NCBI GenBank assembly: GCA_000004985.1
Contig: GG738857.1
Origin: Naegleria gruberi
Lineage: Eukaryota
Strand: one strand, 5' to 3'
Length of the DNA: 64,000 nucleotides
Shown: in pieces, positions 523-26,980 of the stretch
How positions within the stretch are numbered: position 1 is the first letter of the stretch
Layout of the letters: each line of letters opens with the position of its first letter
Program-made: the position numbers and the translations under genes
The notes under the pieces: generated by a model
Databases searched by the model: none
The model's input: the letters and a program-made list of their open reading frames with translations, nothing else
What the model was told of the DNA's origin: nothing

Positions 523-2449
523 TTATGGTGTAAGAGATGTTAGAGAAACAAAATCATCCTTCCAATCATTCTCATATTTCTCAATTAAGAATTTCCAACC
601 TCCTGTCAAATCTACAAGAAGACTATTATATTTATCCGGACCTGCCACTCCATTCAAATCATTATGTCCATCCTTTCCTCTCCACTTGTATCCAAACGTT
701 GGTGAAAAGTGTGGTGATTTAGCTGAGAGACTGTGATATCCTCCTGATTGATCGTATTTACTATATTCTGAACCCTCCACACCAACTATATAAAGATTAA
801 TAAATTATTAAATTATATATATCACTTACTCAATAGTCCACCAAATCTTCCCTTCTTTGGTGATTGGTAATAAATATACATGTGGCCATGTTCTCCATTG
901 GCCTCAATCTTCTTTCCTGTCAATGAACGATTCTCTGCTCCTCCTAAAGGTAAATTCATTCCCCAATCTTGAATAATGCTATTTTAATTGAATTGTGAAT
1001 GAAAACTTACGTCTGTGATGTTTCAAAAATCCATCAGTCGTTCCAAACAACTTGGTATCTCTGAAAGTTATTCCAATAGTTTTGGTTTCATGCAAAACCT
1101 TCTTCTTTCCCATTGGTAAGCTAAAATTGTACTTGTCGTCTATTATTTTCTTTGGCAGTTGTATTGGCGGTTCTTCCATCATTTTACTGACATCTCTCAT
1201 AACTCGTCGTTGTCTATAATGACCATTTGATTGTGATTCATTCTCTAGGAATTTATCTATCATATTGGTTGGTAATTCTTCATCATTAGTGATCTCTAGT
1301 TCGATTGGCTTATCCAAAATGAGTTGATCAGATGCTTGTGGCTTGTAGTAATCTAAAGCATGTGTAGCTCCCAATCTTCTAAAAATCACCTTTCCATCAA
1401 TTCTTGCCTCATCTAAAATTAAATGTTCACACAATTTAAATTCCATTAAAAACTTACTTCCACTCGTTTTGGTTGAAATTATCTTTGATAAATCTCCATC
1501 CACAGTTCCACTGAATTATTATTATAAAGTTATTAATCCTTCATTATTAATCAATTAGAAAACCTACGTAACGAGCCATTTCCAAAATGAATGTTCATCC
1601 TCTCCATGTGTTTTCCTATCCATACTGTCCAACTGTATTATCACTCTACTTCCATGTGACAGGACACTTGCAATTGGATATCTGGTAGTGTTCCACAATT
1701 TCCAATCCTCCACCTTTGCATCCTGTCTATACATTAATCCTCCATATCTCAACACACAAAATACTCTCCTCAGAATATTTCCTAGAGAGTCATACTCTGG
1801 ATTTTCCAAAGTTCTCCTCCACAGAATGGCATCTCTCTTACATTGTGAAATTACTCCACTCTCATTATATTCCTTTTCGATAATTTGTTTTAATCTCTCA
1901 ACTTGACTCAGAAAGAGAGGATCCGAATATTCAACATCATCTGGAATGAGTGCATATTCAAAATGATCAATAAATATCACTGATTTTGGATCNNNNNNNN
2001 NNNNNNNNNNNNNNNNNNNNNNNNNNNNNNNNNNNNNNNNNNTTCAGCTATTGTAGATTTGAAGGCAAACTTGTGCAAACTGTTGAGCTCCTCATACGGG
2101 TTATTACTACATAATCATCATAGTCATTGAGTGAAAGTGAATCAAAATTTTTCACACTCTGGCTGGTTTGATGATGGTAATGATGATTGGAAAGGTCTTC
2201 CGATAGAGTTGACCTTGTATTTGATGGTGATAGTGTTGCTTGATGATTATCACCAACATCAGCCGACAATGATGAGGTTGTTGATGAAGAGGAATTTCTA
2301 AAATATTCTTGTTGATGATGAGGAGAGGTTGTAGTGGTGGCGGATGAGTCAACAACCTTTGAAATTTGTGTGTCTGTTATTGTTTCTTCTCCACCTTCTG
2401 CCACATTAGTATCAACACCTGTCGAGTCAGTATTGTAATGAAATTCCAT
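523..2449 (-). CDS. Hypothetical multi-exon gene of unrecognised family. Exons (minus strand): 2449-2043 (runs into the N gap 1993-2042), 1980-1568, 1510-1011, 967-830, 785-523. Introns are 57, 43 and 44 bp.
   Basis: Consecutive minus-strand ORFs (2048-2449, 1564-1980, 979-1503, 523-780) join in frame through short GT-AG introns: GTAGGT..TTCAG, GTAAGT..TCAAG and GTAAGT..TATAG. The joined translation is continuous (...HSFWKWLVTGTVDGDLSK..., ...FLKHHRHWGMNLPLGGAENRS..., ...RFGGLLIGVEGSEYSKYDQSGG...). The N-terminal region is Ser/Thr/His-rich. No family was recognised by eye. Confidence 0.45.
1993..2042. other. Assembly gap (50 N).
   Basis: Run of n characters interrupting the minus-strand gene above. 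Confidence 0.99.
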
Positions 2450-4524: not shown

Positions 4525-6045
4525 ATGATTTCGTCCACTTCTACTACACCAGACCAAATTTCTGGGACCACGGTCCCGGTCTTGAGCAAGACAGAAGTCT
4601 TTGAAGAAGCAACCAATTTTGTAACATTACTTTATACAGAGTTGAAGAAGAAACCAGAAGAAATTGATGAAAGATTGCAAATAATCAAGGCAGAGATTGA
4701 TAGGACTGGAACTTATGTTCATACCAGTGAAGAATTAACCTATGGCTGCAAGGTTGCTTGGAGAAATTCAGTGAGTTGGTAAGTTAAAAGTTTCGAATAA
4801 TGATAGTAACAAGAATTAAAGTATTGGAAAGGTTCACTGGCAAGTATTAGCCGTCCATGACAAGAGACATTGCAAAACAGAGGAAGAAATAGCTCAAGCA
4901 CTAAAGGAACATGCCAAATTTGCCTTCAATGATGGTAATGTGAGATCTAGTGTTACCCTCTTTCGTCAAGTTTCCAATCCAGATGGAAGTGATGAAATTC
5001 GTATTCACAATCCACAAATCATTCGTTATGCAGGTTATAAAAACAATGATGGAAGTGTTTTAGGTGATCCAGATCATGTTGCCTTGACTGAACATGCACT
5101 TTCTCTTGGTTGGAGGAAAGATCAACCAAAATCAAGATTTGACATTCTTCCACTCCTGATTCAAATTGGAGTTCAAGGAAAGACTAAATATTTCGATTTG
5201 GAACCTGAATACACAACTGAGGTTCATCTCGAACATCCAAAATATCCACAAACAAGTGACATGGCTTTACGTTGGCATGGATTGCCAGCTATTACCAATA
5301 TGAGATTCGAATTGGGAGGTGTTTTTTATACTGCAGCTGCATTCAATGGATGGTAAGTTTCTAAGAATTAATTGTTTGAATGAAAACAAAATATTCGAAT
5401 CAAAGGTACATGACAACTGAAATTACAAGAAACTTTTTGGATGATTTTAGATATAATCTCTTAGATGAATTTGGAAGAGTTATTGGTGTGCGGCCTGATT
5501 CAGATGCCGAATCAAAAAAGAATCCATTCTGGAAAGATATTGCCTCTGCCGAATTCAATGTCATGGTTCAACATTCATTCGATAAACAAAATGTCAAGAT
5601 GGTTGATCATCACACTGCAGGTAAACAATTTGTAAAGCATATGCAAAATGAGGAAAAGAAAGGAAGAGAATGTCCTGCACGTTACAGTTGGATTGTTCCA
5701 CCAAGTGCTGCTCACACAAATCCAGTTTTTCACACAAGGATGAAGGAAATTTGGTTGAAACCAACCATTTCTTATCAACCTGAGATTTTTGATGGAAGTT
5801 TTAGAAATGTTATGGCAAGAGGAGAGGTTTTACCTTCAGATCCTGATTGGAATGTTAAGGAAAGTGTTCCTTCCACACCAACTCAAAGGAGCAAGGCAAC
5901 CTCAAGTCAAAAATCAACGACAGCCAAATCATCCACAAAACAAGTAAGAAGTAATTCTAGTGATAGAGTTCTGGTTAAGATTTTGGCAATTCTTGTGGTC
6001 TTGTTAGCAATCTTATTGGCGTACAATTCTTCACAACACCAATAA
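4525..6045 (+). CDS. Nitric oxide synthase oxygenase-domain protein (NOSoxy-like) with no reductase domain, followed by a Ser/Thr-rich linker and a C-terminal hydrophobic transmembrane tail. Exons 4525-4778, 4822-5352, 5406-6045. Introns 43 and 53 bp.
   Basis: Spliced product contains ...FVTLLYTELKKKPEEIDERLQIIKAEIDRTGTYVHTSEELTYGCKVAWRNSVSCIGKVHWQVLAVHDKRHCKTEEE...NDGNVRSSVTLFRQVSNPDGSDEIRIHNPQIIRYAGYKNNDGSVLGDPDHVALTEHALSLGWRKDQPKSRFDILPLLIQ...[49 protein letters not shown]...VMVQHSFDKQNVKMVDHHTAGKQFVKHMQNE...WIVPPSAAHTNPVFH...YQPEIF. It aligns block by block with the animal and bacterial NOS oxygenase domain (AWRNxxRCIGRIQW, IRYAGYK..DGSxxGDP, RFDxLPLL, VDHH, WIVPP). The heme-thiolate Cys in the WRN..C.G motif is restored only by splicing the 43-bp intron 4779-4821 (TG|gtaagt...aaag|T gives TGT). 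The product ends ...DRVLVKILAILVVLLAILLAYNSSQHQ*. The next gene downstream is on the opposite strand, so no flavodoxin, FAD or NADPH-binding domain follows. Confidence 0.85.
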
Positions 6046-6145: not shown

Positions 6146-9100
6146 TTATCTCTTTGTTAACTTTTTTGGTGGATCAATACTCTTATCAGATTCCTTTCTC
6201 TTTCTGTTGGCAGTATTAGTCGATGGAGATGATGAAGAACTTGCAGCCCTGTTTTGATTGGTATGTTTTGGAGCTGTTGAAGAGCTTGAACTTGCTTGTC
6301 CACTTTTAACAGATTGAACATTCTTTTCAATATTAGAAATTGATGAACTTGTTGCTTTCTTTCTATTTGATGTAGGATTTGATGTAGGGGTGTTTTCAAT
6401 AATTTCTTTTACCTTCTTTTCTTTTTTCACTGGTAACTTATTCAACTCTAACTTTACAATAGGTGATGAGGATGAAGAACTTGATGCTTGTTGTTTCTTA
6501 TTTCCCTTAACTTGTGGTGATTTTTGAGTAGGAGATTTAACCTTCTTATCTGTCAATTTTTTATGTGGAAATTGTCTATTTGCATTCTTTCTTAAACCTC
6601 CACTATATTTGAAAGCATAGATTTGGAATCCACCAATACCATATAATAACATTTGTCTGATAAAGTATTCATCTGAGGAATTGTTTCCTTCCTTGAATGA
6701 TTCATGATCTTTCTTAACAACATCCTTTGATGAAATACCATCGAATAGAACCATATCTGAGACTGGATGAATTCCAATCATATTAGGACCATAGAATGTA
6801 CTGATATTACCTCTTGCAGATGAAACAAAATGAGTTGTTTTTTGTAATTTGTCAACTTCATTACTAAGGAATTTTGATTGAGCAGTTCTAACATTCCACA
6901 ATGAGACATGACCTACATGATTTCTCTTATCAAACTTTTCATTATATAGCTTCTTATACTTTGAAAGAATTTGTTTACCTTCCTTTGTTAGATGTGCCTT
7001 GGTCTCCTCAAGAATAGTCCACAATTCTCTTGGATCTTCAATGCACTTTTTTCTGAATTCTTCAAAGGTTTTAAACATTCTCAATCGATCACTATCACCT
7101 ATTTTACCACAAGTATAATGTGATCTTATCAATGGATTTTCTTCCGTGACATAGGTTAGAAATTCCTTAATTACTTCTTCTTTTTGTTGATAATCATAAC
7201 TTGAATGTAATTCAAAGTAAATGATGGCCTCTGCAAATATGAGATATCTTGCCAATGCGTTATTGTGTCGAACAAAAATAGGTTTCTTATACTCTTCAGC
7301 ATGAATGAAATTATCTTCCATGACATGATAAATTTCCAATTCGAAATGTTCTGCCAATAACATACAAAGTTTCTTCTTCTTTCCAATATTGATAAATATT
7401 TCAGTATCAATACTGACAAATACATAGTTAGGTGCCTTTTCTACCTCATTCATGGCTTCATTTAGGAATGAACGAGCCTTTTCCAAAAATGCATTTTCAA
7501 CCATGATGAAAATTAAATAATCTTGACTTCCATTTTTGGAATGTTTAATACAACAATCATGAACATGTCTCTCTAAAAAGTTTGGAGATGTTTCTTCAAA
7601 ATATTCTGGAAGAGTTGTAATGAAAATTGGAGCAATTCGTTGTCGACTATGACTCTTATTACCACCCATAGTTCCAATTAAGGCATCAGTGGAGAGCAAG
7701 GATTTAAATTTTGCCAGTTTAGTTTCCTTCAATTCCTTTTCATAGGAAACAAGAACTTGTTTTTCATTTCTATCAATTTCCATGAGGACCAGTTGACCTT
7801 TTTGATATAATTTCTTTTGTTCTTCAGATAAACCTGCATCAATACTTTCCTTTTCAACTCTTGTCAAACTAATGCTACTTTTTGGTAATTTTTGAACATT
7901 ACCAAATTTTTCACTGGGTGAAAGAACTTTTGCTCTTTTAAGCTCTCTAATGGTGTTATATTCCTTATCAGGAATAATCATACAACCCTTTCCTGATTTA
8001 CATGCAGGTGATGGATAACGATTTGAAAGACCTAAATGTTCGGCTTTAAGAGGTTTAGTTTTTTCCTTTTTCAAAAGCACTCTCATATCATCAATTAACT
8101 TGAATTTCTCAATTGCTAATTTGAGATATTCTTCAGATTCTAATTGACCTCTAATATGTAAGAGTTCATCTGCACAATTACTCAAATACTCTTTCATTGA
8201 ATTCAAAATTGAGTAAAATATATCAAAACTTCCATAATCTTCAATGCGTTCATTTGGTGAAACAAAATTCATAGAGTGGAAAATATCATCAACAATTTCA
8301 ACTAATTCTCCCTTAAAAGTATTCATTTCTTCTTCCTTAGTTGCTAAATCCTTCTTTTGTTTTGCCATTAATGAATCAATCTTCTTTTCAATAAATTCAA
8401 ACATTTGATTCTTGTACATGTCAATTCTATATCTAATTTTTCTGTTTCTTTCATAGAAATAAGTTGTAAACTCAATCCAATTATCATATTCAATTAATTG
8501 ACTTTGAATATTACAATCTAAGGTTTCGTGAGGTGAAAATGTTTCAATGGGTTCTTCACTCTGTCTCTGTTCAATATTTCTACATTTCTTTTCAGTTCTT
8601 TTAATACTTTTCATCAATGTCTTGACACATGTTGATAATTCAAAGTAAGTTTCCTTGAGAATGGTTTTAATTGCTGCTCTTGCATCTACTGCTGCCTTGA
8701 TTGGAAATTGAGATTTGTAAAGAGTTGCAATTTGTAAAGCATATCTCAATCCCTGAAAAACTAAAAAATTAGTTTCAATAGTCTTTCTCATTTCAATTAT
8801 TTCACCAAGTTGTTTGAAGAATATATTCCATCTCTCCTTATCTGTTTTATGTGGGATTGTTAAATTAGTGGCTCGATTAGCTACTGCAACAACAAAATCA
8901 TACTTTCCAAAGAAATCAACATCCTTCCTCTTGGACTCTTCAATCTTTCCAAGTTGTGAAATATTTTCATTCAAGATCAACATCGAAGAAATCACTCAAA
9001 TTACTCTTAAAATCTGTTAAATATTTTTCATGAAGTTCTGTCAATTCTTTGTATGGATTCTTCTCTTTAGCTATTGTCTGACATAGTGATGTCAAAACAA

Positions 9101-10136
9101 TGGTTGGTGGATTATCAGTATTCTTTTCAAATACCTTGTAGGTCCATAAATCAGGGACACAATCAACACCAACAATTTGTCTTACACTTTCTAAACCCTT
9201 AAGAATGACATTACAATTAGAAATAACCTCTTCAATTAACATGGAAAGAATTTCACTATTATTCTGTTCACCATAACCAGGAATGTCCCATATTGCCACT
9301 TTACCATATCTACTTTTCAAGATTTCACTATTATAACAGAGAACAAATTTGTCAACCATCAAGAGTCTTTCCTTTGATTGAAGTCTTTCCTTCTCAAAGA
9401 CTGACATTACAGCTTTGTCATCTGAAACTTGAAATTCAATTTGTAAATCTCCTTCTTGTTCAAATTTTAAAAGTTCAGCATAACATGTCTTGAGTTCACT
9501 TTGATCGAGACCACAATTAGAAACTGGATTGGATTCTGCTTTTCTAGGTAGAATACATTCTTCTTGTTCATCATTGTAATCATCATCATCTGAACTTTCT
9601 TCATTAGAACCCAATGATGGACTCTCATCAGCAGCAACATCTTGATAATCATCAAGCAATTGATCTTCATTACGATCACTAGAGAGTAAATCAGCAATTA
9701 TCGTATTATCTTCATTCTTCTTTGAGAGACGAATAATTCTATCTACGTACTTCTTAGGTGAGCAATAAACCTTTAATAGACGTAATTTATCAGAATATTT
9801 AATCTCAGTACAAAACAAAGTTTCACCTGAACCAAATTTAGAAGATGCCTTCATTGGATAATCATCTTTTCCAGATAGTATCATATTCAATGTGCTTGTT
9901 TTACCAAATCCAGGTTCTGATAATAAACCTATTGAAATTTCAGGTCCTTTTTCAATCTTTTCATAAATCTTTTCATAATTGTCAAAGGCTTCTTTCACAA
10001 ACTTGTTAGACTGATTCTGCTTTGAAGAAGTTCCAAAATCCTTGACAATTTTATCAAGAAATTGTCTCTTGATTCTCTCTTCTTTAACAACATTGACGTG
10101 GTTAATCTTTGAGTCAGCAGGTGTTTGAGGAATCAT
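6146..10136 (-). CDS. Paralog A of a giant protein family: N-terminal septin/IRG-like P-loop GTPase-type domain with a degenerate G1, then an acidic insert, a helical middle region and a conserved C-terminal domain of unknown function. The coding frame is broken by a 1-nt frameshift near 8966-8996, so this is either a possible pseudogene or a sequencing error.
   Basis: ORF 8967-10136 (LLSEPGFGKTSTLNMILSGKDDYPMKAS..GSGETLFCTEIKYS...VAIWDIPGYGEQN...LSDFFDVDLE*) and ORF 6146-8995 (..DVDFFGKYDFVVAVANRATNLTIPHKTDK...GGNKSHSRQRIAPIFITTLPEYFEE..FLERHVHDCC...RHNNALARYLIFAEAIIYFELHSS...RNHVGHVSLWN...HFVSSARGNISTFYGPNMIGIHPVSDMVLFDG...DEYFIRQMLLYGIGGFQIYAFKY) overlap by 29 nt in different frames. Both segments are collinear with the intact paralog at 10348-13953. 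The 949-aa ORF begins at a GTG, not at an ATG. No plausible GT-AG intron bridges the two frames. Confidence 0.6.
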
Positions 10137-10347
10137 TTTTTTCTTTTTTCAATATTAACAAGCGTTGAGTTTTATGTGAGGTGATGGCAAAGGTTAAGAA
10201 GTGTTGGAGAAGTGAGAAATGACGTGTGGTGCATTTATCATGGTAAATTTGAAATTCAAAATTTAGAAGAGAAATTTGAATCCATGAAGCTTAACAAACA
10301 CGACGAGGTGTAACATTTTAAAAACTCGAATGACATGATGTAAAAAA

Positions 10348-13300
10348 ATGTCAACATCGCTATTGCCAAGTGCCTCCTTTGACCTATTCGATTCTGAATT
10401 ACATAATGTAATTGATGAAGAAAGGGATCGGAAACATATTTTGCAGCAATGTCTACATAAATTAAATGAAAATAATTATGTGACGAAAGCTTTTGCAAAA
10501 TATTCGAATATATTCGAAACTATTGACAAAGGACCTGAAGTTTCTGTTTGTTTATTATCAGAACCTGGATTTGGTAAAACAAGCACATTGAATATGATAC
10601 TATCTGGAAATGACAATTCTCCAATGAAGGCATCCGATAGATTAGGTTCAGGTGAAACTTTAGTCTGTACACAAATTAAATATTCGAAAGACATTCGAGT
10701 TACAAAAGTTTATTGTACAGCTGAAAAGTATGAAGAAAGAATTATGAAATTAATGAAAACAAAAGATTCAGAAGATGAACAAACATCACCAACGCCACTC
10801 ACAGATGGTTTAAGTTTAGTTTCGTCTTCAAGTTTCGAATTTCAAGACGATGATGATGATGAAGAAACTGATTGCGAAGATTCAGCATCAGATGAAGCAA
10901 ATTCACTTTTACTTCCAGAGAAATTAAATGTAGAAACTTCAAGTGTAAGATTAAGTGAAGATCATTTCGTATTTCTTAATGGAAAGGCAGATAGAAATGA
11001 ATTAGAAGAAACATTTACGTTTCAATCTGTTCATGATATTCATAACTATTTTGAAAAGGAAAGAAAAAGAGATGAATGCAATAGAGATGACATTTTAATG
11101 GTTGACAAATATATTTTATACTATCCGTGTGAATTACTTAAAAGTGAATATGGAGAAGTGATATTATGGGATATTCCTGGTTATGGTGAACAAAATTATG
11201 GTGATATTCAAGCTATGCTTGTTGAAGAAGTTGTTTCTAATTGTAATGTCATCTTAATGGCATTGACAGGTAACAGAAATATCCTATCTTTAAATTGTTC
11301 ATCTAATTTATGGAAATATAAGGCATTTGAAAAAAGAAAAGATAATCCACCTACTATTGTCTTAACTTCAAGATGTCCAATAGAAAATTCAAATCATTAT
11401 TCAGAATTAATCAAATGTCATAATTCCTATATTAGGGAATTTAAAGAAAATTTAAGTGATTTTTTCAATGTTGATTTTGAATCTAATCCAAAACCTAAAA
11501 AGAAAGAATTGAAAGAAGAAAATGAAGACGAACCTAAAATAATTGACTTTTTTGGAAAGTATGATTTTGTTGTAACAGTTTCAAATTATGCAACAAATAT
11601 TACAATACCACATTTAACGGATAAAAATAATTGGACTATATTTAAGGATGAATTTTCAAAAATAATTGAAATGAGAAAGAGAATTGAAACTGATTATTCA
11701 ATTTTTAAGGGATTGAGATATGCTTTACAAATTGTAACACTTTACAGAACTCAATTTCCTGTCAATTTTCAAAAATTATGTAAAACAGAGACAGATAAAA
11801 TTGCAGATGAAACTTTAAAAACTTTACTACAATATATTGAAACTTTGGAATCAAATATTCAAAGAGCAATTTCAAGAGGTGAAAAATTAGAGAAGAAAAT
11901 TGAAAATTCTTTCAGTTTTGGAAATGAAAATTCATTGACTGATAAAATTCAGAGAAGATTATTCGAATCACATACAAGAGATGTCATGATTGCTTACTAT
12001 AGTGAAAGAATGAAAAAAATCAGTACAAGAATTGAAATGTTCAGAATTCAATTACATTTTCTATTGGAAACTAAAATTTTAGCAGCACAAAGTCATGAAA
12101 AATGTTTTGATTTTACAAATTTTAAAAACATGTTGTCAGATCATATTGATGAGATATTCGATTCTTTAAAAGCAATTATTCCAAACGAAATGACAGATGA
12201 TTCTAGAATGAAACTTGATTCGTATCATGAATCTTTTAAATCAATGAAAGGAATTTCAGAACAATCTAAAATTTTATTGAAAACTTTAACTAAATCAGGA
12301 TTCAAAAAAATAACCAAAACAGATGATAAGGAACTTTCATTATATGAAAAAGCAGAGAGAGTGAAAAGAGATTTTAAAAAGAAGAACTTCAAGTCCTATG
12401 AAGATGAAATCAAAATTCCAAGTCTTTCTAATGCCTATATGAATCCTTCTCGTAGAACAGGTAATATTCTAATTCCACTAAAAGAATACGAAACTATTAA
12501 GGAATTGAAAGAAAATTTCATTTTACCATCAGTAGGTGAGAAATTTGAAGAAAATATTGGAAAAATAGAAAAACAATCAAAAAGTGAATTGGAATTGGTA
12601 TATCGTTCAGATGAAATTAGTGGAAATATCATTTCCTTACAAATCGACAAATCACAGAGAAGAATTACAGTTTCGTATAATGAAAGTTTGCAAAAATCAA
12701 TTCAAAGTTTTAAAAAACTATTGACCACTGATTCACTCATTGGAACTAAGGGTGGAAACAAGAGTCATAGCCGACAACGAATTGCTCCAATTTTCATTAC
12801 TGCAGTTCCAGAATATTTCAATGATTTCACTCCAAACTTTTTAGAGAGACATGTTCATGATTGTTGTGTTAAATCAGATGTCAATCATATCATTTTCATT
12901 ATGATTGAGTCAATTTATTTGGAAAAAGCTCAATCATTCCTTAATCAGAATTTAAGTTTGTTGAATAATGAATATTCAAAGAAAAAATTGAATTATGTAT
13001 TTATCAGTATTGATACTGAACTTCCTGTAAATATTGGAAAGAAGAAGAAACTTTGCATGTTGGTGGCAGAACATTTCGAATTGGAAATTTATCATGTCAT
13101 GGAAGATAACATACTTCACGTTGAGGAATATATCAAACCAATCTTTTTCAGACATAACAATGCATTGGCAAGATATCTCATCTATGCAGAGGCCATTCTC
13201 TATTTTGAACTTTATTCAAGCATGGATTACACTCAGAAAAAAGGAATTATTAAGGAATTGCATGATTTTTTCTTGGATGAACCTTTAACGAGACGATACT

Positions 13301-21856: not shown

Positions 21857-22841
21857 ATGAAAAGTAAAAGGCAACAAGAATATTCTCTGAAGGGAATTCG
21901 AATAATTGTAGTTTTGATGATGGTGATGATAGGTTTCTTCGGAATAATATCTTGTAAGGATGATTTTCGGGAAACAAGTAATGAATTGGCTTTGGAGTTC
22001 TTTCCTCTTGATAAATTGATTATGAAGAGTATTGTATTGGATGAATACAATAATGAACTTGTTTATAATATGGTCAATTTGACGAATAATGATTCCATGA
22101 CAAATGGAACAGATAGTAACAATTCGAGTGGGATTGAAGATAATCTTTTTTGGGTTATTGTCAAGTCAATTTATTTCAATGCATTTGGAAGTGGAGTGTT
22201 TGCTGGTTTGGTGACAATTGCTATCACTGTCATTATTGAAAAGTTTGGACCTCAGGTTGGAGGTGTTATTGGTACGTTGTAAACCAATTAGTTCAATTTT
22301 TTTAAATCAACTTTTAAATCAATAATAGGCACCTTACCAAGTACAATTATTCCAGCAACAATTGGGTTCTCAATTGAGGCAGATAAGAATTACGGAACAG
22401 ATCCAGAATTGAGGAAACACATGCTCATCCAGCAATTCTTTGTGATACCTTTGGCTGTTTTCTGCAATTGTCTCTTTTTGGTTATTTGGAAATATTCGCC
22501 ACACATTATTGATAGGATTAAACTTTTAATTGATAGGAAGAGAGGGAAGAGCAAGCAAATCAATATTGTTGCTTCTCATGAGGCAAGCGTTCAAGAAATG
22601 AATGAGATTCCATTTGAAGAAAACCATGATATACACGATGCAGATGAGGGACATCATCGTCCTTCTGTTGAGCTCCTCACTGCTGCACAAGGCACTGATG
22701 AACATAGTACCACTGAGCTCCAAACAGAAAGCCAACCAAGCAGAAAGTACCTTGTTGGAAAAATGTTTATTGTAATGACATTGTCATTGGTGGTATGGTT
22801 TACATTGGCTATTGTGATTGTGACAGTTACTAAGGTCGAAA
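21857..22841 (+). CDS. Multi-pass membrane protein. Exons 21857-22271 and 22329-22841 (intron 22272-22328, 57 bp, GTACGT..AATAG). The 3' end is lost in the assembly gap.
   Basis: ...FGPQVGGVIG|TLPSTIIPATIGFSIEADKNYGTDPELRKHMLIQQFFVIPLAVFCNCLFLVIWKY... is continuous after splicing and has several hydrophobic helices. The pre-gap part of the ORF-track 1523-aa ORF (22409 onward) belongs to this gene, not to the PPR gene. Confidence 0.5.
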
Positions 22842-23128
22842 NNNNNNNNNNNNNNNNNNNNNNNNNNNNNNNNNNNNNNNNNNNNNNNNNNNNNNNNNNN
22901 NNNNNNNNNNNNNNNNNNNNNNNNNNNNNNNNNNNNNNNNNNNNNNNNNNNNNNNNNNNNNNNNNNNNNNNNNNNNNNNNNNNNNNNNNNNNNNNNNNNN
23001 NNNNNNNNNNNNNNNNNNNNNNNNNNNNNNNNNNNNNNNNNNNNNNNNNNNNNNNNNNNNNNNNNNNNNNNNNNNNNNNNNNNNNNNNNNNNNNNNNNNN
23101 NNNNNNNNNNNNNNNNNNNNNNNNNNNN
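22842..23128. other. Assembly gap (287 N).
   Basis: N run. The length is not a multiple of 3, so frame continuity across it in the ORF track is an artefact. The gap probably arises from the near-identical PPR repeat units. Confidence 0.99.
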
Positions 23129-26100
23129 AACATGATCAAACAGTCAAACATTTCCAGCGTAACACTTGATGGCATACTAATCAAGTTTTATACAAAGTGT
23201 GGACACGAGGAAATGGCAATAGAGCTCTATAGAGATATCATTTCACAAAATAAGCCAATAGATGTCATAACTTTTACTTGTGTCATTCAAGCATTTGCTC
23301 AACAAAAACAAATAGAACAAGCAATAGGCGCTTTGGAGGAAATGAAAAAGAGAAATATTAACCCAAATAGTGTAACATTTACTATATTAATTAGGTTGTG
23401 TGCAGAAAATCAATATTACAAAGAAGGTGTGAAATTACATGAAATGATCAAAATATCGAAAATTTCGAGTTTAGAATTGAGTAACTCATTAATGAATTTT
23501 TACACAAAATGTGGTAAACCTGATGTTGCCCTTCAACTATTTGAACAACTCAAAGTTGGCAAAATGAAATTGAATGTAGCTTCTTGGTCATGTGCAATTC
23601 AGGCCCTTGGAGAGAAAAAAGACATCAGAGGAGCAATTGGTTTATTGGAAGAAATGCAAGCCAATAATATCAAAGCAGATTCTATTCTATTTACCATATT
23701 ATTATCTCTATGTGCAGACAATCAACTTTATGAAGAAGGAGTGAAATTACATGAAATTATCAACGTATTGAAAATTTCTAGTTTAGGATTGTCGAACACA
23801 TTAATGAATTTTTATAACAAATGTGATCAAACCAGTATATCACTTGAAATATTTGAAGAACTTAAAAAAGAAAACAAGACAAATGTTGTATCATGGAATT
23901 GTGCAATTCAAGCTCTTGCTAAACAGAAACATTTCAAAAAAGCTATTGATTTATTGGAAGAAATGGAATCAAACAAAGTCAAACCAGACACTATTACATT
24001 CACAATACTTATTAGTTTCTGCGCGGAAAATCAGCTCTATGAGGAAGGTGTAAAATTGCATGAGTTCATACAAAGGTTAAATGTATCGAGTTTGGAATTG
24101 AGCAATACATTGATGACCTTTTACACCAAATGTCACAAACCTGAAGTTTCACTCGCGATGTTTGAACATCTTACAAAAGAAAACAAAGCTGATAACGTAT
24201 CTTGGAATTGTGTAATTCAAGCACTTATCCAAAAAGAAGATATAACAAAGGTAACCGAGCTACTGGATAGTATGGCAAAAACCAATATTATGGTTGATGT
24301 TTCCATGTTAGTAGCTGTAGTGAATAAGTGCACAGAACGAAAATTGTTAAAGGAGGGAGTTTTGTTTCACAAGCAGATGAGAATACACAAAATTGAAAAT
24401 GTAGAATTGAGTAATTCCTTAATGAATTTTTACACTAAGTCTGGCCAACCTAATTTATCACTTGAAATATTTGAAGAACTTAAAAAAGAAAACAAGACGA
24501 ATGTTATATCATGGAATTGTGCAATCCAAGCTCTTGGACAAAAAAAAGACATCAACAAAGCTATTGATTTGTTAAAGGATATGCAAATCAATTCTGTTAA
24601 ACCAGACTTCGTAACATTTACTACATTAGTTAGTTTATGCGCAAAGAATCAGCTCTATAGCGAAGGAGTAACATTACATACAATTATCAAAAGCCTTGGT
24701 ATGGAAAATATAGAATTGTCAAACACATTAATGAATTTTTACACAAAATGTGGTAAACCTGATGTTGCCCTTCAACTATTTGAACAGCTCAAAATTGGCA
24801 AAATGAAATTGAATGTAGCTTCTTGGTCATGTGCAATTCAGGCCCTTGGAGAGAAAAAAGATATCAGAGGAGCAATTGGTTTATTGGAGGAAATGCAAGC
24901 CAATAATATCAAAGCAGATTCTATTTTATTTACCATATTATTATCTCTATGTGCAGACAATCAACTTTATGAAGAAGGAGTGAAATTACATGAAATAATC
25001 AAAGTATTGAAAATTTCTAGTTTGGAATTGTCACACACATTAATGAATTTTTACACAAAATGTGGCCACACTAACGTTGCGCTTCAGCTATTTGAGGACT
25101 TGAAAAAAGAAAATAATACCAATGCTATTTCTTGGAACAGTGCTATTCAAGCCTTAGTGCTAGCTAAAGACACCCAGAAAGCAATAGACCTTCTTGCAGA
25201 AATGCAATTGCTCAATGTTAAACCAGATACTATTACGTTCACTATATTAATTGGTCTGTGTGCAGAAAATCAATATTACAAAGAAGGAGTGAAATTACAT
25301 GAAATGATCAAAGTATTGAACATTTCAAGTTTAGAATTGAGTAATTCATTAATGAATTTTTACACAAAATGTGGTCAACCTGATGTTGCACTTCAACTAT
25401 TTGAACAGCTTAAAATTGACAAGATGAAAATGAATGTAGTTTCTTGGTCATGTGCAATTCAGGCCCTTGGAGAGAAAAAAGACATCAGAGGAGCAATTGG
25501 TTTATTGGAAGAAATGCAAGCCAATAATATCAAAGCAGATACTATTTTATTTACTATTTTACTAACTTTATGTGCAGACAATCAACTTTATGAAGAAGGA
25601 GTGAAATTACATGAAATAATCAAAGTATTGAAAATTTCAAGTTTGGAATTGTCAAATACATTAATGAATTTTTACACAAAATGTGGACAAACCAGTATAT
25701 CACTTGAAATATTTGAAGAACTTAAAAAAGAAAACAAGACAAATGTTGTATCATGGAATAGTGCAATCCAAGCTCTGCGATCTAGGAAAGATATTACAAG
25801 AGCCTTTGAATTGCTAGAGGAAATGAAAAAACTCAACATTGAACCAGATGAAATAACATATGTTAGCCTTCTTACTCTATGTGCAGACAGTGTTGCCATT
25901 AAGCAGGGAGAGGAGGTGGTGCAGCAGTTCAAAACAAAACATATAGCAAAAAGTGTCTTTTGGATTGGTGCAACTATAAGCTTTCATGCAAAAGTTGGAA
26001 GATTGGAAAGAGCAGAATCAGTATTCAATGAATATTTATCTAACAACCCACCATTTGATCCAATCTTGACAAGTGTTATGATAGATGCTTATGCCAAACA

Positions 26101-26980
26101 TGGAAAAGGAAAAGAGGCTGTTTATTTGTATCAACAAATAATTGATAGAAACCAACTCCCAAGTGCAGAGGCTGTTACAAGTGTTTTAACCGCTTGTAGT
26201 CATGCAGGGTTAGTTGATGAGGCAAGAAGAATTTACAAGTCAATTGAAAATACACAAGTATGTACACCAAGTCACAAAGCTTGTATGGTAGATGTTTTGG
26301 CCAGAAGTGGATATTTGGAGGAGGCTGAACAATTTATTGGTTCATCAAGAGATGTAGTTAGTTGGGTAACACTACTGGGAGCATGCAGAATTCATACGAA
26401 TGTTGAAATAGCTGAAAGAACGTTTGATATTCTCTTAGAAATAGACAATGAACAAGCTTCCCACTATGTACAAATGTCACATATTTACAATCAAATGGGA
26501 CAAATTGACAAGGCAAACGAAGTAAGGGAATTAATGAAACGTAATAATGCAACGAAAATTCCTGGAATTACCACTATTGAGGTTGATGGTGAGACCCATA
26601 ATTTTGTGTCAGATGATTCATACCACCCTAGAATGCAAGAAATTAACCAAGAGTTAGAAAAGCTGAATAAGGAAATGTTAGATGCTGGTTATGCTCCAGA
26701 TACTAGATGGGTAACAAGGTTAGATGTTGATCCAAATGATGAAAAAAAGAAGAAAGAATTATTATGTAGACACTCCGAAAGAATAGCAATGGCATTTGCT
26801 TTTATTTCATTACCAAAAGATGAACCAATTGTGATGAGAAAGAATTTGAGAGTGTGTGGCGATTGCCATACAGCTACCAAATTCATTTCCAAAATAAGAA
26901 AAAGGGAAATAATTGTGAGAGATGCCAGTAGGCATCATCATTTTAAAGATGGCAAATGCTCATGTGGTGACTTCTTCTAA
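23129..26980 (+). CDS. DYW-type PLS-class pentatricopeptide repeat protein, a plant-type organellar C-to-U RNA editing factor family. It is 5' partial because it starts inside the gap. It has at least 8 near-identical ~105-aa PLS triplet units, then E motifs and a DYW cytidine-deaminase-like domain.
   Basis: Repeating units ..LSNSLMNFYTKCGKPDVALQLFEQLK.GKMKLNVASWSCAIQALGEKKDIRGAIGLLEEMQANNIKAD.ILFTILL.LCADNQLYEEGVKLHEII.. recur with a period of about 600-1260 nt. The C-terminus KKELLCRHSERIAMAFAFISLPKDEPIVMRKNLRVCGDCHTATKFISKIRKREIIVRDASRHHHFKDGKCSCGDFF* carries the DYW-domain HSE and CxDCH zinc and deaminase signatures. It ends DFF in the position of the canonical DYW. Confidence 0.85.
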   Translation, partial: NMIKQSNISSVTLDGILIKFYTKCGHEEMAIELYRDIISQNKPIDVITFTCVIQAFAQQKQIEQAIGALEEMKKRNINPNSVTFTILIRLCAENQYYKEGVKLHEMIKISKISSLELSNSLMNFYTKCGKPDVALQLFEQLKVGKMKLNVASWSCAIQALGEKKDIRGAIGLLEEMQANNIKADSILFTILLSLCADNQLYEEGVKLHEIINVLKISSLGLSNTLMNFYNKCDQTSISLEIFEELKKENKTNVVSWNCAIQALAKQKHFKKAIDLLEEMESNKVKPDTITFTILISFCAENQLYEEGVKLHEFIQRLNVSSLELSNTLMTFYTKCHKPEVSLAMFEHLTKENKADNVSWNCVIQALIQKEDITKVTELLDSMAKTNIMVDVSMLVAVVNKCTERKLLKEGVLFHKQMRIHKIENVELSNSLMNFYTKSGQPNLSLEIFEELKKENKTNVISWNCAIQALGQKKDINKAIDLLKDMQINSVKPDFVTFTTLVSLCAKNQLYSEGVTLHTIIKSLGMENIELSNTLMNFYTKCGKPDVALQLFEQLKIGKMKLNVASWSCAIQALGEKKDIRGAIGLLEEMQANNIKADSILFTILLSLCADNQLYEEGVKLHEIIKVLKISSLELSHTLMNFYTKCGHTNVALQLFEDLKKENNTNAISWNSAIQALVLAKDTQKAIDLLAEMQLLNVKPDTITFTILIGLCAENQYYKEGVKLHEMIKVLNISSLELSNSLMNFYTKCGQPDVALQLFEQLKIDKMKMNVVSWSCAIQALGEKKDIRGAIGLLEEMQANNIKADTILFTILLTLCADNQLYEEGVKLHEIIKVLKISSLELSNTLMNFYTKCGQTSISLEIFEELKKENKTNVVSWNSAIQALRSRKDITRAFELLEEMKKLNIEPDEITYVSLLTLCADSVAIKQGEEVVQQFKTKHIAKSVFWIGATISFHAKVGRLERAESVFNEYLSNNPPFDPILTSVMIDAYAKHGKGKEAVYLYQQIIDRNQLPSAEAVTSVLTACSHAGLVDEARRIYKSIENTQVCTPSHKACMVDVLARSGYLEEAEQFIGSSRDVVSWVTLLGACRIHTNVEIAERTFDILLEIDNEQASHYVQMSHIYNQMGQIDKANEVRELMKRNNATKIPGITTIEVDGETHNFVSDDSYHPRMQEINQELEKLNKEMLDAGYAPDTRWVTRLDVDPNDEKKKKELLCRHSERIAMAFAFISLPKDEPIVMRKNLRVCGDCHTATKFISKIRKREIIVRDASRHHHFKDGKCSCGDFF

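Follow-up and report, generated by a model that had tools for sequence, protein, structure and literature searches.

Nitric oxide synthase (NOS) is described in two textbook layouts, an animal-type enzyme with a fused reductase and a soluble bacterial enzyme that consists of the oxygenase only; a membrane-held oxygenase would be a conserved third. Here we analyse a candidate for such an enzyme, encoded by a three-exon gene at 4525-6045 (+) in a 64,000-nucleotide stretch of Naegleria gruberi NEG-M DNA (contig GG738857.1 of assembly GCA_000004985.1; the whole stretch is called the window below). This is probably a functional nuclear gene for a stand-alone NOS oxygenase, joined by a disordered linker of ~60 amino acids (aa) to a C-terminal transmembrane helix. 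As a tail-anchored protein it would synthesize nitric oxide (NO) with electrons supplied in trans.

Metazoan-type NOS (nNOS, iNOS and eNOS, together with the fused enzymes of Physarum and algae) shares its oxygenase fold and catalytic residues with the Naegleria protein. It also has a zinc-binding CxxxxC motif and hook, a calmodulin helix and a reductase binding flavin mononucleotide (FMN), flavin adenine dinucleotide (FAD) and reduced nicotinamide adenine dinucleotide phosphate (NADPH), all of which the Naegleria enzyme is without. The NO-release gate is Val in the metazoan type and Ile in Naegleria. Where the animal enzymes attach to membranes, eNOS does so by acylation and nNOS by PDZ scaffolding, in contrast to the transmembrane helix of Naegleria NOS.

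The stand-alone bacterial NOS oxygenases (NOSoxy) of Bacillus, Deinococcus, actinobacteria and cyanobacteria share the oxygenase-only layout, with no hook, zinc site, calmodulin site or fused reductase. They are 43-48% identical to Naegleria NOS and, like it, have Ile at the position of iNOS Val346. Both need a reductase that another protein provides, and bacterial NOSoxy enzymes use non-dedicated cellular reductases. They are soluble and have no hydrophobic tail, whereas Naegleria NOS adds a 60-aa linker, an Arg-Gly-Glu (RGE) motif and the C-terminal helix. It further differs from them in its spliceosomal introns, in a Lys for the Arg of the CIGR motif and in a Tyr for the first Trp of the pterin pocket.

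Two other comparisons are useful. Multi-domain NOS proteins of the Sorangium type and of cyanobacteria show that outside animals NOSoxy occurs with varied partners, including reductase and globin modules and other domain orders. They are near Naegleria NOS in sequence (46-48% identity for P0133 from Sorangium and P0130 from a cyanobacterial metagenome-assembled genome) but, unlike it, carry their own redox modules and have no tail anchor. Microsomal cytochrome P450 and cytochrome b5, the latter a textbook tail-anchored haem protein, offer a functional analogy, with a cytosolic haem domain held by one terminal helix; electrons from a separate flavoprotein are likewise predicted for Naegleria NOS. 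Neither is homologous to NOS, the P450 anchor is N-terminal, and for Naegleria NOS a partnership with NADPH-cytochrome P450 reductase (CPR) is a proposal.

Gene model, oxygenase domain and tail

Joining 4525-4778, 4822-5352 and 5406-6045 gives an intact open reading frame (ORF), with a spliced coding sequence of 1425 nucleotides that specifies 474 aa and then TAA. The features of the gene and its convergent neighbour are as follows.

4525-4778 (+): exon 1, starting at the ATG; encodes aa 1-84 and the first two bases (TG) of codon 85 (Cys)
4588-5787 (+): NOS oxygenase domain, aa 22-389; the genomic span takes in both introns
4779-4821 (+): intron 1, 43 bp, GTAAGT..AAG, phase 2; splits the codon of the haem ligand Cys85 as TG/T
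4822-5352 (+): exon 2, aa 85-262, ending with the first two bases of Trp262
5291-5293 (+): codon of Ile242, in exon 2; equivalent to iNOS Val346 and to the bacterial Ile
5353-5405 (+): intron 2, 53 bp, GTAAGT..AAG; specific to N. gruberi
5406-6045 (+): exon 3, aa 262-474; TAA stop at 6043-6045
5419-5421 (+): codon of substrate-binding Glu267, in exon 3
5788-5967 (+): linker, aa 390-449, Ser/Thr-rich (32%), predicted to be disordered
5818-5826 (+): Arg400-Gly401-Glu402 (RGE), the invariant motif of the tail-anchored clade, ~10 aa past the domain end
5956-6039 (+): C-terminal hydrophobic helix, aa 446-473, with core VLVKILAILVVLLAILLAY at aa 450-468; putative tail-anchor transmembrane segment
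6146-8995 (-): convergent neighbouring ORF, 949 aa

The ATG is preceded, 3 codons away, by an in-frame stop, and both introns have a GC content of ~23%. A gap of 100 bp separates the NOS stop from the convergent ORF, so there is no room for downstream NOS exons. The locus had been picked out in a sequence-only reading of the window, which described a spliced three-exon gene for a complete NOS oxygenase domain, a haem-ligand codon split by a 43-bp intron and a next gene from 6146 on the other strand; the gene model bears out each of these points.

The same reading supposed that automated prediction would easily miss the gene, and here it was mistaken. An exact-sequence look-up showed the spliced 474-aa protein to be identical to XP_002679491.1 (EFC46747.1; UniProt D2V8T5; NAEGRDRAFT_65272), a GenBank model since 2010, and the gene itself is not new. 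Its GenBank label is 'predicted protein', and UniRef calls it 'nitric-oxide synthase (NADPH)' by automatic annotation. The look-up matched five window proteins in all, NOS among them, to N. gruberi NEG-M proteins of a 573-kb scaffold. What appears to be undescribed is the tail-anchored architecture, the clade that shares it and the viral link. Full-text literature searches found no paper naming D2V8T5 or reporting NOS in Heterolobosea or giant viruses, though reviews of NOS evolution may mention it; nor is the protein in the supplement lists of a paper on mitochondrial targeting in N. gruberi. A near-identical N. gruberi-type gene, with one Ser-to-Gly change in the linker, is present on a 2871-bp ENA metagenome contig. 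There a prokaryote-style gene caller split it into two proteins (P0122 and P0123) that correspond to exons 3 and 2. The 211-aa fragment is a cluster representative, and because it stands for the cluster of the N. gruberi protein, the latter was missing from our first homology listing.

Profile and fold both place the protein in the NOS family. The Pfam NO_synthase profile (PF02898) aligns to aa 22-389 along nearly its full length (positions 2-360 of 362; E value 7e-143), scoring 476 bits against a curated cutoff of 22.7. Searches of the PDB hit the nNOS, iNOS and eNOS haem domains at E values of about 1e-95, with 40-42% identity. An AlphaFold2 (AF2) model built from 57 aligned homologues has a predicted local distance difference test score (pLDDT) >90 over residues 20-390. 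In Foldseek it superposes on the iNOS, nNOS and eNOS oxygenase domains with a target-normalised template modelling (TM) score of 0.85 and a root-mean-square deviation of 1.7-2.0 A over ~375 columns. These profile and structure searches had been proposed as checks by the sequence-only reading, and the motifs that it quoted are all present: the translation contains AWRNSVSCIGKVHW, IRYAGYK..GDP, RFDILPLL, VDHH, WIVPP, YQPEIF and VLVKILAILVVLLAILLAY.

We surveyed individual residues in an alignment of 260 NOS domains, of which 254 are homologues outside the six-member clade described below. Kept in N. gruberi NOS are the thiolate pair Trp79/Cys85, Phe259, Trp262, Tyr263, arginine-binding Glu267 and Arg270. 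The haem-thiolate motif WRNxxxC(I/V)G is present with W79 and C85, its next Arg being replaced by Lys88, and the arginine-binding W-Y-x-x-x-E segment is intact (W262, Y263, E267). In the pterin pocket, the stacking Trp357 (iNOS W457), R270 (Arg375) and F370 (Phe470) are all in place, and the equivalent of W455 is Tyr355. The residue at the NO-release gate, Ile242, is also found in 127 of 146 short forms in the alignment; 52 of 85 long forms have Val. Residues and model together appear to give no sign of a dead enzyme. We had also considered Asn271 ('RN' rather than 'RD') as a bacterial mark; it was dropped, Asn being found in 59 of 85 fused NOS as well, and eNOS carries Asn at the equivalent position.

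The modules that distinguish animal NOS are missing. Only 21 residues, with zero Cys, precede the NOS domain, leaving no zinc-binding CxxxxC motif or hook. We take the hook and zinc site to be absent because the N-terminus is this short and Cys-free and because the alignment to nNOS begins past the zinc-binding region. PF02898 is the only Pfam domain in the protein, whose last 85 aa are linker plus helix, and the gene encodes neither a calmodulin site nor modules for flavin or NADPH. Within the 64-kb window, tblastn with ten reductase modules from fused NOS returned no NOS reductase homologue, and Pfam scans of the large ORFs detected no flavodoxin or ferredoxin-NADP reductase (FNR)-type protein. 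The absence of hook, calmodulin site and flavin modules had likewise been read from the letters, and it held.

Beyond ...YQPEIF the protein continues with a linker of 60 aa (390-449; 32% Ser+Thr), in which pLDDT falls below 50 at 393-399 and 415-444; the region of the RGE motif is also modelled at low confidence. The whole protein has one hydrophobic segment, residues 445-473, whose Kyte-Doolittle 19-residue mean (KD19) of 3.01 makes it the sole stretch above 1.6. AF2 models residues 446-473 as a helix (pLDDT ~92), followed by six polar residues and the stop. The N-terminus is polar and has no signal sequence. By this Kyte-Doolittle scan and the modelled helix, N. gruberi NOS has the sequence features of a tail-anchored protein: a single putative transmembrane segment at the extreme C terminus and no signal peptide. 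A glycosylphosphatidylinositol signal was considered as an explanation of the tail and rejected, there being no N-terminal signal peptide.

A tail-anchored clade and its giant-virus link

Searches of large protein collections recovered five further proteins with the same layout, in which a NOS domain is followed by a variable linker, one hydrophobic helix and the stop.

P0001: N. lovaniensis (L001), 62% identity to N. gruberi, 495 aa
P0002: Naegleria-like metagenome contig L002, 69% identity to N. gruberi, 378 aa (partial call)
P0004: 1.2-kb JGI contig L004, 53% identity to N. gruberi, 387 aa (partial)
P0003: Logan contig L003, 44% identity to N. gruberi, 450 aa
P0131: contigs L005-L008, 44% identity to N. 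gruberi, 410 aa

The terminal helix reaches a KD19 of 1.85-2.9 in the five homologues, and at all six loci the stop comes directly after it; the linker differs in length and sequence from member to member. The tail anchor and ~60-aa Ser/Thr-rich linker noticed in the sequence-only reading are thus matched by five proteins that end alike. No comparable C-terminal tail was found among ~265 other NOS homologues, two apparent exceptions looking like translation artefacts. In a neighbour-joining (NJ) tree with 100 bootstraps, the six tail-anchored sequences form one clade (100/100), within which the three Naegleria-type sequences group at 100, as do P0003 and P0131.

Three private marks accompany the tail. 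Lys88 (CIGK) stands where 252 of 254 other homologues have Arg. The first pterin-pocket Trp, kept in 225 of 231 others, is Tyr355 (Ile in one member). The RGE motif is invariant in the six-member alignment. The viral members also have Gln at the position of Arg270.

Intron 1 is at an identical position in N. gruberi, N. lovaniensis (L001) and L002, and the site of intron 2 is read through in the latter two. The N. lovaniensis gene has MeaB-like, TM2 and CNNM genes as neighbours, and tblastx over flanks of ~10 kb or less per locus detected no synteny beyond NOS among the window, L001 and L002. Given the distance between Naegleria species, this lack of synteny says nothing either way.

Two deep-branching members of the clade come from contigs that look giant-virus-like. 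L003 (GC 26%) has densely packed intronless ORFs, including metacaspase-like and XPG/FEN1-like genes. Adjoining its NOS gene at 4608-5843 (-) is a 411-aa ORF with an HETFH motif and no credible Pfam family; relatives that match this ORF over its full length number >100 in IMG/VR (41-54% identity), on contigs of up to 385 kb, many of them labelled GVMAG. L005 is 8283 bp long with a GC content of 28%. None of the seven neighbouring ORFs scanned there gave a significant Pfam match, and two of its neighbour proteins had no close relatives in IMG/VR. A further contig, L170, overlaps L005 at 99% identity and extends it by a stretch that encodes DUF5760 and a sulfhydryl oxidase of the Erv1/Alr type. 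One of the L005 neighbours has relatives on equally compact contigs, where they adjoin genes for TFIIS, RNA polymerase Rpb6, an SNF2 helicase and an E2 enzyme. The octamer AAAATTGA, the Mimiviridae early-promoter motif, occurs in nine copies on both strands of L005, and six of these precede ORF starts by 40-120 bp. The L005 NOS gene is without this octamer and is preceded by a TATA-rich stretch. We conclude that P0003 and P0131 are encoded by Nucleocytoviricota, on giant-virus-like contigs. As an observation in its own right, the 411-aa ORF of L003 would seem, from its many relatives, to be an uncharacterised gene conserved widely among giant viruses.

Infection of Naegleria by giant viruses has been described (PMC11043551): about 3% of the viral genes are shared with Naegleria, and gene uptake from Naegleria-like hosts is reported; the paper makes no mention of NOS. 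The giant-virus-like contigs offer a concrete route for exchange of the NOS gene, and the family has probably passed between heterolobosean amoebae and giant viruses. The N. gruberi copy is nonetheless not a raw viral insert, because it has introns, its GC content at third codon positions (GC3) of 0.28 equals the window mean of 0.28, its neighbours are cellular, and the adjacent ORF 6146-8995 has no relatives that we could find on viral contigs. Pfam scans of the large window ORFs identified flanking genes for a Ras GTPase, a pentatricopeptide-repeat (PPR)-DYW protein, a cyclophilin, an actin-related protein and PARG.

Scans with an alignment of the clade added no members. In JGI metagenomes they yielded 80 loci, all bacterial-like NOSoxy without a hydrophobic tail, and in IMG/VR they yielded only L009, a soluble bacterial-type NOSoxy that falls outside the clade. 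On L009 (IMGVR_UViG_3300027857_000012, 134 kb, GC 42%), positions 9917-11107 encode this 396-aa protein, which is 41% identical to the query and has no tail. Filed as viral, the contig has a response-regulator-like ORF near the NOSoxy gene and may come from a large phage or be bacterial DNA binned in error. Hydrophobic segments of another kind occur at the N terminus of two NOSoxy homologues, P0272 (605 aa; several segments within residues 9-123) and P0184 (499 aa; 20-44 plus 47-78); membrane-bound NOSoxy variants of other topology therefore exist.

Mechanism, origin and competing explanations

In the mechanism that we propose, NOS would be inserted into its membrane after translation, with the catalytic domain toward the cytosol. 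Of the possible membranes we favour the endoplasmic reticulum (ER): by rules drawn from yeast and mammals, a helix as hydrophobic as that of the Naegleria proteins, followed by an uncharged C-terminal stub, points there. The oxygenase would dimerise as other NOSoxy domains do, the flexible linker allowing both dimerisation and contact with a membrane-bound flavoprotein. A pterin, tetrahydrobiopterin (H4B) or tetrahydrofolate (H4F), would bind in an open, bacterial-like pocket; we expect the site to be open because the hook is missing, as it is in bacterial enzymes able to use tetrahydrofolate. Cofactor handling may be altered by Tyr355 and Lys88. L-Arginine would be converted through N-hydroxy-arginine to citrulline plus NO. 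Electrons would arrive in trans from a separate membrane-associated flavoprotein, for which ER CPR is the obvious candidate and, because the NOS reductase domain is homologous to CPR, the natural one. Supply by CPR would mirror the microsomal P450 system. From Ile242 we would expect NO to leave slowly, as it does from bacterial NOS. The architecture thereby raises a testable question, trans reduction of NOS haem at a membrane.

Several points weigh against this picture. With Lys for the Arg of CIGR, Tyr for a pterin-pocket Trp and, in the viral proteins, Gln for Arg270, the use of pterin, or the chemistry itself, could depart from the canonical NOS pattern. Sequence cannot separate the ER from the mitochondrial outer membrane or the peroxisome, and targeting rules from yeast and mammals may fail in Heterolobosea. 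The electron donor is pure inference, the reductase searches having covered the 64-kb window. Finally, a homology search detected no orthologue among the annotated proteins of N. fowleri, and the gene may not explain the NO reported for that species. In favour of the picture, a 2021 review (PMC8469197) describes NO production by N. fowleri through a NOS that 'remains unidentified'. D2V8T5 is a definite gene with which the source of NO in Naegleria can be probed and, should the proposed function be right, a candidate for the long-sought amoebal NOS.

Where the clade came from is harder to read. Clade members share 47-50% identity with their best stand-alone bacterial NOSoxy (cyanobacterial-type, one cluster being named Lyngbya), about 46-48% with Sorangium-type proteins and 41-47% with fused oxygenase-reductase proteins. 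All six are 2-5 identity points nearer the stand-alone bacterial enzymes than fused NOS. Architecture, Ile242 and these identities lean toward the bacterial side. In the NJ tree the nearest neighbours of the clade are multi-domain NOS, followed by metazoan-like NOS, but the nodes concerned have 17% and 9% support; no deeper grouping exceeds 17%, and branches at this depth are beyond the resolution of the tree. The clade may be of bacterial or of eukaryotic deeper origin, and transfer could have run from virus to host or from host to virus. The sequence-only reading had called the enzyme bacterial-type and saw in it a hint of horizontal acquisition followed by domestication, or of a different electron-donor arrangement. 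Its bacterial likeness stands in architecture and at Ile242, and domestication is supported by the introns (one common to three Naegleria lineages) and native GC3. Acquisition is not established: the phylogeny called for in that reading unites the six members at 100 and gives their deeper position 9-17% support.

Tentatively, and with confidence a little short of even, we propose an undescribed family of tail-anchored, reductase-less NOS common to heterolobosean amoebae and Mimiviridae-like viruses. It would include the first virus-encoded NOS and work in P450 fashion with a host reductase, and one partner would have acquired it from the other. Such a history would bring giant viruses into the range of NOS and show clearly how an enzyme of signalling or defence can pass between host and virus. 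If it is true, a virus carrying the gene would be able to control how much NO is present in the amoeba that it infects.

A vertical history would make the clade a degenerate form of eukaryotic fused NOS that lost its reductase and hook and gained an anchor, with no horizontal transfer into Naegleria and with viruses capturing the gene from a heterolobosean host. The introns and native composition agree with such descent, as do the best solved-structure matches, which are to mammalian NOS, and the reported uptake of genes by Naegleria giant viruses from Naegleria-like hosts (PMC11043551). The tree also points this way, but at the 17% and 9% nodes already described, and no intermediate fused form groups with the clade. 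Moreover, Ile242 and the missing hook and zinc site are the bacterial state, and the identity margin of 2-5 points favours stand-alone bacterial and Sorangium-type NOSoxy over fused proteins. We regard fused-NOS descent as a serious but rather unlikely account.

The marks that set the clade apart raise the question of function. The near-invariant Arg replaced by Lys88, the Trp replaced by Tyr355, the viral change of Arg270 to Gln and a conserved RGE without counterpart in known NOS would suit a membrane-bound haem-thiolate oxidase of another kind (nitrating or NO-dioxygenase-like) or a haem/NO sensor, with viral copies manipulating host redox. There is a precedent in thaxtomin TxtD, a bacterial NOSoxy that serves nitration. 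Against such a role, the Naegleria proteins retain every arginine- and haem-binding residue as well as the pterin-stacking Trp, and the fold is indistinguishable from that of catalytic NOSoxy; we consider it improbable. Still further from the evidence is a recent endogenous giant-virus element, as opposed to a domesticated gene, with an incidental hydrophobic tail. It would account for the nearest non-Naegleria homologues of the same architecture lying on giant-virus-like contigs and for the missing synteny around NOS among N. gruberi, N. lovaniensis and L002. It is largely refuted, and in our view scarcely credible, given two spliceosomal introns, one of them common to three Naegleria lineages, a GC3 at the window mean, ordinary cellular flanking genes, an adjacent ORF without viral relatives and a tail kept in all six members.

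Neighbouring genes

The nearest gene upstream of NOS is that for the Ras-family GTPase, on the opposite strand. Downstream, ORFs 6146-8995 (-) (949 aa) and 8967-10136 (-) (389 aa) overlap by 29 bp, and neither has Pfam domains; they may be one gene interrupted by a short intron or a frameshift. The exact 389-aa product of 8967-10136 was absent from the protein collection searched. At 1564-1980 (-), an ORF within an apparent multi-exon minus-strand gene matches Pfam Ntox11 ('novel toxin 11'; E value 6.5e-12). The PPR-DYW protein is encoded by an intronless 1523-aa ORF at 22409-26980 (+) and combines pentatricopeptide repeats with E, E+ and C-terminal DYW deaminase domains, the architecture of plant-type RNA-editing factors.

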